From NCBI RefSeq assembly GCF_016026235.1, contig NZ_CP065613.1: a stretch of DNA of 64,000 bases; one strand, given 5' to 3'. The DNA comes from Escherichia coli (GTDB lineage Bacteria > Pseudomonadota > Gammaproteobacteria > Enterobacterales > Enterobacteriaceae). This document shows positions 42,554 to 49,324 of this stretch, one piece after another. How positions within the stretch are numbered: position 1 is the first letter of the stretch; each line of letters opens with the position of its first letter. The position numbers were made by a program, and so were the translations under genes. The notes beneath the pieces were generated by a model. It was not told the DNA's origin and searched no databases. It worked only from the letters and a program-made list of their open reading frames with translations.

Positions 42554-42614
42554 ATGAATATCGTTCCACTGAATTACAAAGGCGAACCTATCCGCTTCAA
42601 TACTGATGGCTGGA
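42554..42614 (+). pseudogene. KilA-N/Bro-N domain protein, 5' portion (split by IS600)
   Basis: MNIVPLNYKGEPIRFNTDGW then the IS left end. Confidence 0.55.
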
Positions 42615-42657
42615 TGAGGTGTACTGGCAATAGCGGACACTACCATTTGTTCTTTTT

Positions 42658-43476
42658 TTAAGCAGCCATCTGATGATATTTTTCCCTGAAGGCTGCCGGG
42701 GAGATATTCCCCAGACGAGAGTGACGACGCTGACGATTGTAGAAAATCTCAATGTATTCCCGTATTACTGAGATGGCTTCATCCCGGTTATTAAAACGAT
42801 AGTGGCTCAGGCTCTCATTTTTCAGCGTTCCCCAGAAGCTTTCCATCGGAGCGTTGTCGTAACAGTTACCTTTACGCGACATTGATGTTTTCAGACCAAA
42901 CTGCTCCTGTATGACCCGGTAATCGTATGCGCAGTACTGTGAACCTCGATCAGAGTGGTGGATTAGCCCGGCAGGTGGGCGCTGGCTCCTGAGCGCCATA
43001 AACAGGGCTTTACCTGTCAGCTCTTTTGTCATGCGCTCTCCCATGGCGTAGCCGACAATTTCGCACGTATAAACATCTTTGATGCCAGCGAGGTACAACC
43101 ATCCCTCCTGTGTGGCAACATACGTCAGGTCCGCCACCCAGACCTGATTTGGTGCTGTAGGAGCGAACGTCTGGTTCAGCAGATTTGGCGCAACTGGCAG
43201 ATTGTGGTTCGGGTTCGTAGTCGCTCTGAACTTGCGTTTCTGCTTACAGCGTAGCCTTAGCTCCTTACGAAGACGTGCCAGTCGGTCACGACCAACGATG
43301 ATGCCATTCTCTGCCAGCTCCGTCTGGAGCCGCCGGGTTCCATATGTTTCGCGAGTGCGGATATGTGCCACCTTAATCTCCAGTTTTAGCCGCTCATCAC
43401 TTTGTTTTCTGTCTGAGGGTTCATGCTGTACCCAGTTGTAATAACCGCTCCTGGATACACCAAATACCTGACACAT
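42658..43476 (-). CDS. IS3-family transposase OrfB (DDE integrase domain)
   Basis: 272-aa ORF with DDE motif region; normally expressed as an OrfAB fusion by -1 frameshift. Confidence 0.85.
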   Translation of the reverse strand: MCQVFGVSRSGYYNWVQHEPSDRKQSDERLKLEIKVAHIRTRETYGTRRLQTELAENGIIVGRDRLARLRKELRLRCKQKRKFRATTNPNHNLPVAPNLLNQTFAPTAPNQVWVADLTYVATQEGWLYLAGIKDVYTCEIVGYAMGERMTKELTGKALFMALRSQRPPAGLIHHSDRGSQYCAYDYRVIQEQFGLKTSMSRKGNCYDNAPMESFWGTLKNESLSHYRFNNRDEAISVIREYIEIFYNRQRRHSRLGNISPAAFREKYHQMAA

Positions 43477-43525
43477 CGCTTCAATGGGAAATTGTTGTCG
43501 CCATTGTTCGATTAACGCGTATTTT

Positions 43526-43813
43526 TCAGCGACTCCTGTGCAAAATACGCTGTTGCTTTTTTAATATATCTCGCTCAAGGCGAGCTTCATTTAACGCCTT
43601 ACGCAGTTGCAGAATTTCAGATTCCAGTTCAGCCACCGTGCGGGAGCCAGGAGTACCGAGCCCTTTTCTGGCGGCGGTAACCCATTGTCCTAAAGTGCCT
43701 TCAGGAAGGGATAATCGGGAAGCGCCTTCACTGATCGAAAGTTGATTTTCAAGAACCGTTCTGACAGCTTCGGCTTTGAACTCTTTAGAGTAACGTTGGG
43801 TTTTTCTGCTCAT
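43526..43813 (-). CDS. IS3-family transposase OrfA (HTH)
   Basis: 95 aa with HTH and leucine zipper; slippery TTAAAAAAG near its 3' end. Confidence 0.85.
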   Translation of the reverse strand: MSRKTQRYSKEFKAEAVRTVLENQLSISEGASRLSLPEGTLGQWVTAARKGLGTPGSRTVAELESEILQLRKALNEARLERDILKKQQRILHRSR

Positions 43814-43877
43814 TATTAGCTCCTTCTGATGCCATTCTATTTCAGGAAGGAGTGTCCGTTAAACTCAGGCTACCTCA

Positions 43878-44341
43878 GGATTAATGCCACTGATATTGCA
43901 AAACGTTTCGGGAAGCGTCTGGATCACTGGTTGTCCAACGCTGAAACTCTCGAATACGTTAGAGCTCTGGATGAGGTTTATTCAGGTGAACCATCGAAAA
44001 TTCTACATACCCGTGATTCCGGGTATGTAAAAACAAGCAAGGCACGAAAGGACAGGGGCGGCGGAACATGGCAGCATCCAAAGTTATCAGTTGCCTTTGC
44101 AAGATGGTGCGATCCGAAATTCTCCGTATGGTGCGACCTGCACATTGATAGTCTGCTTCGCGGTGAACTGACTGAGCAGCAGAAATATGAGCAAGCATGT
44201 CGCATTCGCGATGACCGGAAATCAAAAGCCAGCAATGGGGCAAGAGAGATGGCTCGCTGGCGATGGGATAAGCCGGTTATTGAAGCAAATGTCGAGTACT
44301 GGCGCGAGCAACTGCAGTTGACTCTCGATATCGCGTGCTGA
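43878..44341 (+). pseudogene. KilA-N/Bro-N domain protein, 3' portion
   Basis: Continues in frame after the IS and one TSD copy: INATDIAKRFGKRLDHWLSNAETLEYV... Confidence 0.55.
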
Positions 44342-45014
44342 TGGCAAACGCAAAACTGCGTTATCGGAAAAATCAAAGCATTACGAGAACTGAGCAACAG
44401 CTATCCATTACAAAGTCCATCTACGGGTGGGCTTGATAATGGCTTATACCCTACACGGGATAACTTAACTGATATCCCTTTTAACGGATAAAGGTATTCA
44501 GGCCTGACACATCATGCGCTGTATCGTCGCTGTATTCCCGCATTAACCATGACCGTAGCCCGACGGGGAACTCCTTCTGCGCGAGTGTGCGGGAATAATC
44601 AAAAACGATGCACACCGGGTTTTTACCGCGTTTATGGTTCGCGGGTTTGTCCCTCATGCTCGCCAGTCCTGTGCGGGGGTGGAAGAAACAGGACACTTAC
44701 ACTGATTCTTGTGGGTACGATGCTATTCCTTTCTGGATTATCCCGATGTCATTCATGCAGGGCGCTGTATCAGACGTTCGTCATGGCTGTCAGGCTGACG
44801 GGTCCTCCCGGTGGGGTGGCCTGCCACGGGGCGGGAGCGGCGCGGAAAAAGGCTAGTTTTTGAAATTTCATTCGTCATCACCACTACTGTAATGTATTGA
44901 TATTACAGTGGTTTTATTTTTGTGCTGTCGGTTTTGATTGTTTTTTGTTCATCACTAACACCGTTTGCCTAAAGTTGTTCGCAAGATGCATGTTTAAAAC
45001 ATTCTGGAGCGGGT

Positions 45015-45508
45015 ATGGATCGAGAGTTAAAAAATCTGACGCTGAATATCAGTCAACTGGCGGCACTGTCAGGTGTACATCGCCAGACTGCTGCGGCAAG
45101 GCTGCAAAATCTACCCGTTGCAGGGGGCATGAAAGCAACCTCAAGCTTTATCGGGTGGTTGATATTGTGTCGGCATTTCTGGCATTACCACCGCCGGTTG
45201 CAGAAGGCGAAATGGACGCGCATGAGCGCAAAGCCTGGTATCAGTCTGAACGTGAGCGTCTTAAGTTCGAACAGGAAACGGCACAACTCATTCCGGCCAG
45301 TGATGTCAGACGGGAGTTTGCCATCTGGGCAAAAGCGGTCGTGCAGGTGCTGGAGACATTACCGGATATTCTTGAACGTGACTGCGGTCTGCAGCCTGCC
45401 GCTGTGAGCCGTGTTCAGTCCATTATTGATGATCTGCGCGATCAGATAGCCCTGCGGGTGACTGAAGCAGGTGCGGATGATGAGGAGGAATTACAGCAGG
45501 AGGAGTAA
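45015..45508 (+). pseudogene. Terminase small subunit, apparently frameshifted at a G5 run
   Basis: N-terminal HTH part (MDRELKNLTLNISQLAALSGVHRQTAAARLQNLPVAGG) in one frame, acidic C-terminal part ending at 45508 in another; switch near GCAGGGGGCATG about 45125. Confidence 0.5.
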
Positions 45509-47610
45509 TGCTGAATCAGGAAACCGCAAAGGCAGCACGAACCGATTCAGGTTATATCCTTCGCGCACCAAGACGAATGCGGGTTGCTGATGCCGTTGCT
45601 CAGTATATGCGGGTGCCCATGGGGGCAGGGAACTCAGTCCCGTGGGATCCGCTGGTGGCACCGTATGTTATTGAGCCGATGAACTGCCTGGCCTCGCGTG
45701 AATACGACGCAGTGATATTTGTTGGCCCGGCACGAACCGGCAAGACTATCGGCCTGATTGACGGCTGGGTGATTTACAACGTGATTTGCGATCCTGCTGA
45801 TATGCTGATCATTCAGATGACGGAGGAAAAAGCCCGCGAACACTCCAAAAAACGACTCGCCAGAACGTTTCGCGTCAGCCCGGAAGTGGTCAGTCGCCTG
45901 AGTCCGAACAAAAATGACAACAACGTTTATGACAGAACATTCCTTGCTGGCAACTACCTGAAAATCGGCTGGCCGTCAGTCAATATCATGTCCTCATCAG
46001 ATTATAAATGCGTCGCGCTGACGGATTATGACCGTTTTCCGGAAGATATTGATGGTGAGGGGGATGCTTTCTCTCTTGCCTCAAAACGTACCACAACATT
46101 TATGTCCAGTGGTATGACGCTGGTGGAGAGTTCCCCCGGCAGGGATGTGAAGGATGTGAAATGGCGACGGACTTCACCGCATGAGGCTCCACCAACCACG
46201 GGGATACTGTCGCTCTATAACCGTGGCGATCGCCGTCGCTGGTACTGGCCCTGTCCACACTGTGGTGAGTATTTTCAGCCCTGCGGCGATGTGGTTGCTG
46301 GTTTCCGTGATATTGCCGATCCCGTGCTGGCAAGTGAGGCGGCTTATATTCAGTGTCCTTCCTGTTCAGGACGGATTATGCCTGAACAAAAACGTGAGCT
46401 GAACGGACGTGGGGTCTGGTTGCGGGATGGTGAATCCATCAATGCGGATGGCAGTCGTTATGGTGATCCCAGGCGTTCACGTATTGCGTCATTCTGGATG
46501 GAGGGTCCGGCAGCTGCTTACCAGACACTCTCGCAACTCGTTTACAAACTGCTTACTGCAGAACAGGAATACGAGACAACCGGAAGTGAAGAAACACTCA
46601 GGGCGGTTATCAACACCGACTGGGGATTACCTTATCTTCCCCGCGCCAGCATGGAGCAACGAAAAAGTGAACTGCTTGAGCAGCGGGCAGAGCCTGTTCC
46701 TCCCCGCTGCGTGCCGGATGGTGTTAATTTCCTGGCGGCGACAGTGGATGTGCAGGCGGGACGTCATCGCCGTTTTGTGGTTCAGGTAACGGGTTATGGT
46801 TGCCGTGGCGAACGCTGGATTATTGATCGTTACAACATCACGCAGTCATTGCGTTGTGACAACAACGGAGAAAGCCTGCGAATTGATCCTGCTGGTTATC
46901 CTGAGGACTGGGATGTCCTGCTGACGGATGTTTTTCATAAAAGCTGGCCGTTGGCCTCCGATCCTTCTCAACAAATGCGACTGATGGCAATGGCGGTGGA
47001 CTCCGGCGGTGAAGACGGGGTCACTGATAATGCCTATAAATTCTGGCGTCGTTGCCGTCGTGATGGCCTTGGTAAACGTATTTACCTGTTTAAGGGCGAC
47101 AGCATCCGGCGCGCAAAACTGATCACCCGTACATTCCCTGATAACACCGGACGAACGGGCCGACGGGCGCAGGCCGCAGGTGATGTGCCGCTCTGGCTTC
47201 TTCAGACGGATGCCCTGAAAGACCGGGTGAATAACGCGTTATGGCGTGACTCGCCAGGTCCCGGCTATGTGCATTTCCCTGACTGGCTGGGGAGCTGGTT
47301 TTACGACGAACTGACGTATGAAGAGCGGAGCAGTGACGGGAAATGGAGTAAGCCGGGTCGAGGTGCCAACGAAGCTTTTGACCTGATGGTGTATGCCGAG
47401 GCTCTGGTCATTCTGCATGGTTACGAGAAAATTCAGTGGCCGGATGCGCCGGAATGGGCATGCAGGGAAACCTGGCTGGAGCGTGTCAGGGACGATGCCG
47501 GACTGTCAGCCTCGCCGGAGCCGGTATCCGTGTCCGTTAAAAAAAAGAAACGAAAAAAAGTGGTGCCTGATGAAGAAAACCCATGGGTGACTTCCGGAGG
47601 ATGGTTGTGA
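45508..47610 (+). CDS. Terminase large subunit (GpA family)
   Basis: 700 aa; Walker A (VGPARTGKT), large size, position before the portal gene. Confidence 0.9.
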   Translation: MLNQETAKAARTDSGYILRAPRRMRVADAVAQYMRVPMGAGNSVPWDPLVAPYVIEPMNCLASREYDAVIFVGPARTGKTIGLIDGWVIYNVICDPADMLIIQMTEEKAREHSKKRLARTFRVSPEVVSRLSPNKNDNNVYDRTFLAGNYLKIGWPSVNIMSSSDYKCVALTDYDRFPEDIDGEGDAFSLASKRTTTFMSSGMTLVESSPGRDVKDVKWRRTSPHEAPPTTGILSLYNRGDRRRWYWPCPHCGEYFQPCGDVVAGFRDIADPVLASEAAYIQCPSCSGRIMPEQKRELNGRGVWLRDGESINADGSRYGDPRRSRIASFWMEGPAAAYQTLSQLVYKLLTAEQEYETTGSEETLRAVINTDWGLPYLPRASMEQRKSELLEQRAEPVPPRCVPDGVNFLAATVDVQAGRHRRFVVQVTGYGCRGERWIIDRYNITQSLRCDNNGESLRIDPAGYPEDWDVLLTDVFHKSWPLASDPSQQMRLMAMAVDSGGEDGVTDNAYKFWRRCRRDGLGKRIYLFKGDSIRRAKLITRTFPDNTGRTGRRAQAAGDVPLWLLQTDALKDRVNNALWRDSPGPGYVHFPDWLGSWFYDELTYEERSSDGKWSKPGRGANEAFDLMVYAEALVILHGYEKIQWPDAPEWACRETWLERVRDDAGLSASPEPVSVSVKKKKRKKVVPDEENPWVTSGGWL

Positions 47611-47819: not shown

Positions 47820-49324
47820 TGGCAATTCTTGATGATGTGATTGGTGTTTTTTCACCTGGCTGGAAAGCTGCGAGATTGCGCTCAAGGGCATTAATTCGTG
47901 CCTATGAGGCAGTGAAGCCTACTCGTACACATAAAGCCCGGCGGGAAAATCGTTCTGCCGACCAGCTCAGTAAGTACGGTGCAGTTTCCCTGCGGGAGCA
48001 GGCTCGTTTTCTGGACATCAATCATGATCTGGTAATCGGTGTTTTCGACAAACTTGAGGAACGGGTGATTGGTGCAAAAGGGATCGTTGTCGAACCCCAG
48101 CCATTACTGAAGAACGGTGATATAGCCACAGAGCTGGCAATGATTATCCGTCGCTTGTGGGTGGAATGGTCTGTCAGTCCGGATGTGACCGGGCAGTATA
48201 CGCGCCCCATGCTCGAGCGTCTGCTGCTGCGTACCTGGTTACGTGATGGTGAAGTGTTTGCCCAGCTGGTTCGTGGTGCCGGCGGCGGGCTGGTGCGGAC
48301 TGCTGGCGTGCCTTTCTGGATCGAGGCAATGGAGCCGGATTTTGTGCCCATGCTCAGTGATGAATCTGTGGGGTTGAATCAGGGTGTTTTTCTGGATGAC
48401 TGGGGCAGACCGAAAAAATACCTGGTTTATAAAAATCATCCGACTACCGGGCGGCTGAGTGATACCAAAGAGATCGTTGCCGAAAATATGGTGCATCTGA
48501 AATTTACCCGTCGTCTGCATCAGACGCGTGGTACATCCATGTTGTCAGGTGTGCTGATGCGGATCAGTGCGCTTAAGGAATATGAAGATGCTGAGCTGAC
48601 AGCGGCGCGTGTTGCTGCGGCTCTGGGGCTGTATATCCGTAAAGGAGATGGGCAGGATTATGAAGACGCCACGATAAATAAAGATAATGACCGGGAACTG
48701 CATATCACCCCTGGCATTATTTATGACGATTTGCGCAAGGGGGAAGATATTGGCATGGTCAAATCTGATCGGCCCAATCCTAACCTTGAAACTTTTCGTA
48801 ACGGGCAGCTGCGTGCGGTGGCCGCAGGCAGTCGTATGAGTTTTTCCAGTGCGGCGCGCAATTACAACGGTACCTACAGCGCTCAGCGACAGGAGCTGGT
48901 CGAGTCCACTGACGGGTATCTGATCCTGCAGGACTGCTTTATTGGTGCTGTAACCCGTCCCGTGTACCGGACGTGGCTGAACATGGTGGTAGCAGCAGGT
49001 CTGCTGAAAATCCCGTCGGATGTGGATATGAAAACGTTGTGTAACGCAACATATTCCGGTCCGGTCATGCCGTGGATTGATCCGGTTAAGGAGGCTGAGG
49101 CCTGGAAAATCCAGATTCGCGGTGGAGCGGCGACAGAATCAGACTGGGTGCGAGCAGGTGGGCGTAATCCGGATGATGTCAAACGTCGGCGCAAGGCTGA
49201 AATTGATGAAAACCGCAAGCTGGGTCTGATATTTGATACCGATCCGGCCAGTGATAAAGGAGGCAGCAGTGTCGCAACGAAACGACAGGAGCCGCAGCAC
49301 ACCGACGGCCAGTCCGAAGAATAA
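47819..49324 (+). CDS. Portal protein
   Basis: 501 aa; position and size typical of lambda gpB-type portals. Confidence 0.85.
   Translation: MAILDDVIGVFSPGWKAARLRSRALIRAYEAVKPTRTHKARRENRSADQLSKYGAVSLREQARFLDINHDLVIGVFDKLEERVIGAKGIVVEPQPLLKNGDIATELAMIIRRLWVEWSVSPDVTGQYTRPMLERLLLRTWLRDGEVFAQLVRGAGGGLVRTAGVPFWIEAMEPDFVPMLSDESVGLNQGVFLDDWGRPKKYLVYKNHPTTGRLSDTKEIVAENMVHLKFTRRLHQTRGTSMLSGVLMRISALKEYEDAELTAARVAAALGLYIRKGDGQDYEDATINKDNDRELHITPGIIYDDLRKGEDIGMVKSDRPNPNLETFRNGQLRAVAAGSRMSFSSAARNYNGTYSAQRQELVESTDGYLILQDCFIGAVTRPVYRTWLNMVVAAGLLKIPSDVDMKTLCNATYSGPVMPWIDPVKEAEAWKIQIRGGAATESDWVRAGGRNPDDVKRRRKAEIDENRKLGLIFDTDPASDKGGSSVATKRQEPQHTDGQSEE

Follow-up and report, generated by a model that had tools for sequence, protein, structure and literature searches.

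Among the lambda-like phages whose cos sites are described in PMC4669245, the 7 bp of cosQ are highly conserved, bp 7–12 of the cohesive ends commonly vary, and cosB, according to Feiss and colleagues, varies with packaging specificity. The cosN site of lambda has rotational symmetry in 10 of its 16 bp, and R3 spans bp 50–65 in lambda and bp 48–60 in N15 (PMC9026076), while the lambda IHF site I1 sits between R3 and R2 in the descriptions of both papers (PMC4669245, PMC9026076). The locus compared here with these systems lies in a 64,000-nt stretch of Escherichia coli DNA (contig NZ_CP065613.1), referred to as the window.

The lysis/packaging junction of the prophage

The interval 44342–45014 (673 bp) is the gap between a KilA-N gene and the terminase genes of a lambdoid prophage, whose late operon has the gene order Rz-type spanin, split KilA-N, the interval, DUF1441 small terminase and gpA-family large terminase (Table 1). 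It is likely the untranslated lysis/packaging junction of a defective lambdoid prophage, in which a putative cos site and a conserved element of about 180 nt lie independently of each other.

As aligned with the KilA-N genes of ev099 and SPN3UB, the first ~60 nt of the gene are found at 42554–42615 and the remainder from about 43877, on the two sides of an IS3-family insertion. An earlier interpretation made from the letters alone (the sequence-only reading) had named a KilA-N gene as the left border of the interval; the border stands, but the gene is not whole, as the reading frame at 43829–44341 covers only the 3′ part of the IS-split gene. The initial codons of this reading frame come from the IS and not from KilA-N. 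Exact matches to the IHF consensus, one of which is located just past the KilA-N stop codon, number seven in the window against 2.6 expected.

On the right side, the small-terminase gene differs from that of phage vB_EcoS-569R4 (G5 versus G6 in the G run at about 45123–45128), which results in a frameshift after residue 38. A PHROG match of its N-terminal part is the sole basis of its kinship to Nu1, and a query of the small terminase against the sequences of solved structures found no relative. The prophage is thus probably defective, with KilA-N split by an IS and the small terminase frameshifted; as a consequence of this frameshift it is probably unable to package DNA, and its cos copy is probably idle.

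The interval itself is very probably non-coding. The ORFs on both strands are all short (25–104 aa) and give no match in a Pfam scan, the interval homologues are set apart by indels of lengths not divisible by three, and of 38 sequences no more than nine keep any one frame open over the full conserved part. Two PHROG families, phrog_17397 and phrog_6954, match within the interval; these matches are ORF calls placed over conserved DNA. The RefSeq annotation leaves the interval blank in most E. coli genomes. The sequence-only reading had likewise seen no convincing ORF between KilA-N and the small terminase, and a conserved coding gene supported by homology, which would have spoken against it, was found neither by Pfam and PHROG searches nor by the analysis of frames and indels. 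The GC-rich tracts it had pointed out are also present, the homologue of cosQ and cosN being among them.

Table 1. Features of the junction and its neighbours, with window coordinates (slashes in sequences mark predicted nicks; slashes between coordinates separate the two strands of a helix)
Feature	Position	Strand	Basis or remark
IS3-family insertion splitting KilA-N	about 42616–43876		orfA 43526–43813 (−), orfB 42658–43476 (−)
KilA-N domain gene, 3′ part	43877–44341	+	Pfam KilA-N, E=1e-19; alignment to ev099 and SPN3UB KilA-N genes
KilA-N trailer	44342–44401	+	kept only in phages with this KilA-N gene (ev099, SPN3UB)
Small hairpin AACGCA-AAAC-TGCGTT in the trailer	44347–44362	+	
IHF consensus AATCAAAGCATTA	44371–44383	+	exact match
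Subfamily-specific leader ahead of the element (113 nt)	44402–44514	+	>90% identical in 569R4, Ayreon, ev099, 2851
Conserved structured element, ~180 nt	44515–44696	+	single copy in window
Helix P1	44521–44527/44605–44611	+	
Helix P2	44533–44543/44587–44597	+	
Variable hairpin P5	44626–44630/44640–44644	+	
Hairpin P6, loop GCGGGGGTGGAAGAA	44666–44672/44688–44694	+	
cosQ homologue GGGTCCT	44800–44806	+	identical to lambda heptamer; near-invariant in relatives
cosN homologue CG/GGGCGGGAGCGG/CG	44827–44842		lambda alignment; assembly breaks in relatives
Predicted cohesive-end sequence	44829–44840		homology to lambda
I2-like spacer CGCGG AAAAAGGCTAGTTTTTGAAATTTC	44841–44870		aligns to lambda bp 13–45 (GCTA.TTT.TGAAA.TTTC); kept in relatives
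Box A CATCACCACTAC, candidate small-terminase site (R3 equivalent)	44876–44887		bp 48–59 from predicted left end
Inverted repeat, arms ACTACTGTAAT and ATTACAGTGGT, then TTTATTTTT	44883–44912		repeat and fold analysis
IHF consensus TATCAATACATTA (WATCAANNNNTTR), I1 equivalent	44890–44902	−	exact match
T-run and box B TTGTTTTTTGTTCATCAC, second candidate small-terminase site	44938–44955		near-invariant; repeats CATCAC core of box A
DUF1441 small-terminase gene, frameshifted	45015–45508	+	intact 569R4 homologue matches Pfam DUF1441, E=3e-41
gpA-family large-terminase gene	45508–47610	+	Pfam GpA_ATPase E=9e-72, GpA_nuclease E=7e-84

A predicted lambda-type cos site

The region 44797–44960 is identified with high confidence, from homology, as a putative lambda-type cos site, and the packaging-related part of the interval is confined to about these positions. 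A comparison with the cos regions of GpA-terminase phages had been suggested along with the sequence-only reading; set against lambda cos, 44797–44870 proves homologous to cosQ-cosN-I2, with 59 of 88 positions identical (global alignment, first 95 nt) and an alignment score of 66 against 37.6 ± 4.9 in shuffles (maximum 58; z about 5.7). This homology was missed by a stringent local alignment to lambda and recovered by gentler scoring. The window contains a single GGGTCCT with ACGGGGCGG 18–26 nt further on, a combination that none of 100 shuffles contains. The lambda heptamer is located at 48473–48479, as placed by counting back from the right end of lambda, and the distance from cosQ to the predicted nick is 22 nt here versus 23 nt in lambda.

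Within cosN, bp 1–6 and both flanking CG are identical to those of lambda, while bp 7–9, 11 and 12 differ; the sequences ACG/GGGCGG and /CGCGG around the nicks are the same. The ends of lambda read ACGGGTCCTTTCCGGTGATCCGACAGGTTACG/GGGCGGCGACCT/CGCGGGTTTTCGCTATTTATGAAAATTTTC, and their counterpart in the window reads ACGGGTCCTCCCGGTGGGGTGGCCTGCCACG/GGGCGGGAGCGG/CGCGGAAAAAGGCTAGTTTTTGAAATTTC, where 8 of the 16 bp of cosN are rotationally symmetric by direct reading. At the level of sequence, the site thus fits the pattern described by Feiss, with cosQ and bp 1–6 identical and bp 7–12 variable. The nick positions and the 12-nt length of the overhang are predictions from homology alone. The predicted overhang differs by 2–3 nt among relatives, and in mEp460-type phages a 5′ overhang GGGCGGGAGCG(T/G) is predicted, whose first base corresponds to 44829. 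The site is located about 185 bp upstream of the small-terminase gene.

The sequence-only reading had suggested that the interval may carry a cos or pac site, of which the cos part is borne out by the cosQ and cosN homologues and the gpA-family terminase, and the pac part is not. A pac site for headful packaging would agree with the position upstream of the terminase genes and with nothing else, and is extremely unlikely next to a large terminase of the gpA family and homologues of cosQ and cosN.

The ends of sequence records in close relatives lend indirect support to cosN as the virion DNA end. For mEp460_4F5, whose genome assembly derives from virion DNA (PMC6969025), the record is linearised between ...GGCCTG and CCACGGGGCGGG, 5 nt from the predicted nick; the records of 2B8 and ev099, lambda-type genomes of the same study, break inside the lambda cosN; and the Ayreon record has a chimeric junction directly after CCACGGGG. 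In the last record (MF807953.1), positions 3431–3582 are a 150-nt chimeric insert containing a small-terminase fragment, exactly at cosN, and a CDS annotated as 'putative late gene regulator' crosses the chimeric junction. Positions 1–33 of the ev099 record (LR597635.1) are Nextera adapter.

Downstream of the I2-like spacer, an alignment of 15 relatives (75–98% identity) shows which parts of the cosB region are kept. The conserved blocks are cosQ, cosN, the I2-like spacer, the CATCACCAC box, TTGAT and the TGTTTTTTGTTCATCAC block. The inverted repeat that the sequence-only reading had placed at 44887–44908 is real and longer than stated, with arms of 11 nt (44883–44893 and 44902–44912) that are 91% complementary and 8 nt apart. 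Folded as DNA, it gives −6.3 kcal/mol (z = −2.5), and 3 of 200 shuffles fold as well. This cue to the packaging site is not what relatives conserve: the arms are not kept in those that are 76–79% identical (the L039, 1720a and L098 groups), whereas the TTGAT core and the CATCACCAC box are. The palindrome overlaps the R3/I1-equivalent part of cosB and is itself incidental and not required. A scan for terminators flags the same hairpin with 13 pairs including G-T, followed by TTTATTTTTG; a role as intrinsic terminator, or as insulator of the terminase genes from cos, is nevertheless very unlikely, as only three of the 13 pairs are G-C, one such site is at chance level in the region (0.8 expected), it is the TTGAT/IHF core and not the arms that relatives conserve, and the late operon would be cut ahead of its first packaging gene.

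No lambda-like 16-bp R repeats were found in the putative cosB, only short CATCAC boxes at bp 48–56 (44876–44884) and bp 122–127 (within box B, 44947–44955), which flank the IHF site. The former is the CATCACCAC box, within box A at 44876–44884 or bp 48–56 from the predicted left end. Box A occupies the position of R3 in lambda and N15 and is a candidate R3 equivalent. The IHF site, whose TTGAT core is invariant in the 15 relatives, aligns with TAATGTTTTTAT at bp 79–90 of lambda. Boxes A and B change jointly between groups, containing CATCAC in one set and CATCAT / GACATC in others; in the L039 and L098 groups they read CATCAT / GTTCGACATC. Such joint variation is the behaviour expected of small-terminase recognition sites, and it may be a sign that the boxes co-evolve with the small terminase and so bear on packaging specificity.

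By analogy with lambda, the small terminase would bind the cosB boxes and IHF would bend the DNA, while the gpA-type large terminase would nick cosN on either side of GGGCGGGAGCGG, generating 12-nt 5′ cohesive ends and starting packaging, which cosQ together with cosN would end. The cos site is an ordinary one, another member of a well-understood system, and the gain from it is small: one more pairing of cosB with a small terminase, in a prophage that is probably no longer able to package.

A conserved element after the lysis genes

When the interval was compared with phage records by BLAST, its positions 61–352 were found in common with hundreds of phages possessing different downstream genes, and alignment narrows the shared core to 44515–44696, with sharp borders and unrelated flanks. 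The 1720a, lambda and SPN3UB groups lack the leader ahead of this core. Ayreon, 569R4 and 4F5 contain a clear intrinsic terminator just upstream of the leader segment.

The element is present in 438 phage records, with one copy per genome, including lambda, HK629, DE3, 434, ES18, SPN3UB, phi24B and many Stx1 and Stx2 phages (933W-like). The lambda copy extends from about 46,867 (to 47,030) between bor and lambdap78, and the K-12 copy is located in DLP12 between borD and ybcV; the Qin prophage of K-12 contains no copy. Among 5426 complete E. coli genomes, 4634 (85%) contain the element, with a median of two and up to 11 copies, mostly unannotated. Of the 12,208 E. coli matches, 696 are on plasmids and are often partial; these may be phage-plasmids. 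Outside the phages of Escherichia and Salmonella, the element was found only in Intestinirhabdus alba, and a scan of a genome collection added only Escherichia, Intestinirhabdus, contaminant-like contigs and two matches taken as chance.

In about 140 loci, the element always lies on the strand of Rz and downstream of the lysis cassette, either directly after Rz (in the 1720a group, 10 nt past its stop codon) or after Rz plus KilA-N or bor. It is followed by at least five packaging modules (DUF1441 with gpA, Nu1/nohD, 1720a-type, HNH with a PBSX small terminase, and 933W-type terminase) and elsewhere by leftward genes such as ybcV and ylcI; in ES18 it is at the right end of the record. Phages whose packaging modules are of the HK97 type, of the 933W type or that of ES18 contain it equally. 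As it precedes several different packaging modules, the element, which lies in the left two thirds of the interval, is not part of cos.

The consensus fold of the plus strand obtained with RNAalifold contains the helices P1 and P2, small helices P3 and P4, a variable hairpin P5 and a hairpin P6. In an alignment of 46 sequences, which includes divergent variants from a second scan, 96.2% of the helix cells are paired. Pairs changed on both sides number 14, against 8.1 ± 1.4 in shuffles (none of 500 as high), and double-change cells number 71 against 15.8; controls in which the partners were slid reach at most 11 both-side-changed pairs, with much lower covariation. Compensation is seen in P6 (GTCCGGT/ACCGGAC to TCTCGAT/ATCGAGA) and in P2, where positions cycle through C-G, U·G, U-A and A-U, while the sequence of P5 is wholly replaced between copies with the hairpin retained. 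P3 is deleted in some Stx2a phages and is thus dispensable. Among 75 unique sequences, G·U is found in 239 cells and A·C in 59 (236 versus 27 without one doubtful P5 pair), and this excess of G·U points to the plus strand, which is the strand of the late transcript. Folded as a single sequence, neither strand is more stable than its shuffles (z = −0.4). The diversity of the element is narrow (Escherichia, Salmonella and Intestinirhabdus), and the double changes therefore trace to a handful of lineages. On this comparative evidence, it is somewhat more probable than otherwise that the element acts as a plus-strand RNA structure. Such an RNA would fold into a long interrupted stem (P1 and P2), the variable hairpin P5 and the conserved hairpin P6, with conserved single-stranded stretches joining the helices.

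It is improbable, in comparison, that the element is a shared 'linker' with no function, whose copies stay alike through frequent recombination where the lysis and packaging modules meet. The exact mosaic junction with its many flank combinations and the low overall diversity are what recombination would leave, but the flanks diverge completely while 180 nt stay 74–98% identical, substitutions preserve pairing on one strand, and P5 changes its sequence yet stays a hairpin. Rather unlikely, too, is a DNA-level regulatory sequence for leftward 'moron' genes, for example the promoter or control region of bor. Lambda-type copies contain TGGACA-N15-TACAAT on the minus strand about 115 nt upstream of bor, which the HK629 record annotates as a promoter, and the right border of the element is often where minus-strand genes (ybcV, ylcI and lambdap78) end. 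However, bor is absent from most copies and the same positions there read CGGTCA...TACAGC, no promoter-like site was found in the window copy, and neither double changes nor a bias of G·U over A·C are expected of protein-binding DNA. The near-consensus sigma-70 promoter toward bor is located at 1215–1241 of HK629, minus strand, equivalent to about 46,880–46,906 of lambda. The window sequence at the corresponding positions matches it poorly. A promoter of the HK629 type arises via few substitutions relative to other subfamilies; the sigma-70 site in the lambda-type copy may be the bor promoter, and this bor-directed promoter may have arisen secondarily, as an adaptation within the bor-carrying lambda subfamily.

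A small protein encoded by the element, be it the 81-aa vb_24B_26 of phi24B, the ORFs of phrog_6954 and phrog_17397 or a minus-strand ORF of 58–71 aa, is a highly improbable explanation. Annotators do call ORFs on either strand, PHROG matches exist, and 33 of 38 sequences keep a minus-strand frame open throughout the 5′ block. Against this, the called ORFs vary in strand and frame among records and have no Pfam match, the element lengths (163–182 nt) are mostly not multiples of three, the whole element is crossed by an open frame in at most nine of the 38 sequences, variability by codon position has no third-position excess, and in lambda a 1-nt deletion, seen by direct reading of the sequence, shifts the minus frame, the only one that is often open. 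In one Stx2a phage record, the match to the element is labelled 'Rz-like spanin'.

For the reading as a plus-strand RNA, no described RNA could be assigned. Rfam 15 gives no match at E≤1 in 43500–45600 of the window, and a permissive Rfam scan of the copies in lambda, phi24B, SPN3UB, Intestinirhabdus and 1720a gives nothing over the element. A lambda RIL-seq preprint names only three Hfq-dependent sRNAs of lambda, none of which is at the element. Several prophage RNAs were considered and rejected: PreS/LPR1, LPR2 and 6S of lambda are located elsewhere, the Pas sRNAs are neighbours of Q and the holin-lysozyme operon, STnc100, AgvB, AsxR and Esr41 are reported in the flanks of the Pas sRNAs, and IsrK is part of the separate orf45-anrP-isrK unit. 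A literature search for an sRNA at borD-ybcV and for vb_24B_26 found nothing, the element region is unmentioned in a TRIC-seq preprint, and the CRISPRi essentiality map of lambda contains nothing on the element.

It is possible, short of probable, that the element represents an undescribed family of structured RNAs built into the late transcripts that lambda and the majority of lambdoid phages and prophages produce, where it may serve as a cis-acting processing, stability or self-cleaving module that uncouples the expression of lysis genes from that of structural genes. The fixed site after the lysis genes, the untranslated read-through stretch, the stem of P1 and P2 and the missing terminator and U-tail suggest a cis-acting role in processing or stability; the more specific assignment, to a structure that directs in cis the processing or stability of the late mRNA where lysis genes give way to packaging genes, is tentative and of slightly lower probability still. 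In a promoter scan, neither the element nor the terminase genes are preceded by a plus-strand promoter.

Of the two findings, the element is the one of greater use, being sharply bounded, covarying, unannotated, and present in lambda itself and in Stx-converting phages. Should it prove to be a functional RNA, late-gene control would have a further layer that has escaped study, and the conflicting 'hypothetical protein' calls at the locus would be accounted for. It is directly testable in lambda, the best-developed phage genetic system.

Comparison with described systems

The element resembles the sib/RNase III retroregulation sites of lambda and intercistronic mRNA stabiliser hairpins, which likewise contain a conserved, untranslated, long interrupted stem located after a gene block in a read-through transcript. 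It has no sequence similarity to them, is larger, and possesses conserved single-stranded joints. With the known sRNAs of prophages it shares the putative nature of a non-coding RNA of lambdoid phages and prophages, but these sRNAs belong to the early left operon, the pR' region, the neighbourhood of Q or the holin gene, or the nin region, and the element, unlike prophage and phage sRNAs, contains no terminator hairpin with U-tail. Rfam holds AgvB, AsxR, Esr41 and STnc100, according to a preprint, and none of them matches the element.

The cos site shares with that of lambda the order and spacing of the subsites, an identical cosQ, the left half of cosN, the flanking CG and an I2-like spacer, as well as an IHF consensus at the position of I1 and genes for a small terminase and a gpA-type large terminase directly downstream. 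It differs in bp 7–9, 11 and 12 of the cohesive ends, in its small terminase (DUF1441 here, Nu1 in lambda), in CATCAC boxes in place of 16-bp R repeats, and in a distance between I2 and R3 that is shorter by about 17 nt. Although the pairing of this cosB with DUF1441 is absent from the cos sites discussed in PMC4669245, from which it is set apart by their description, the cos sites of 21, N15, Monarch and gifsy-1, as described in that paper, follow the same pattern, where cosQ and the left half of cosN are conserved, bp 7–12 are variable and cosB depends on the terminase.
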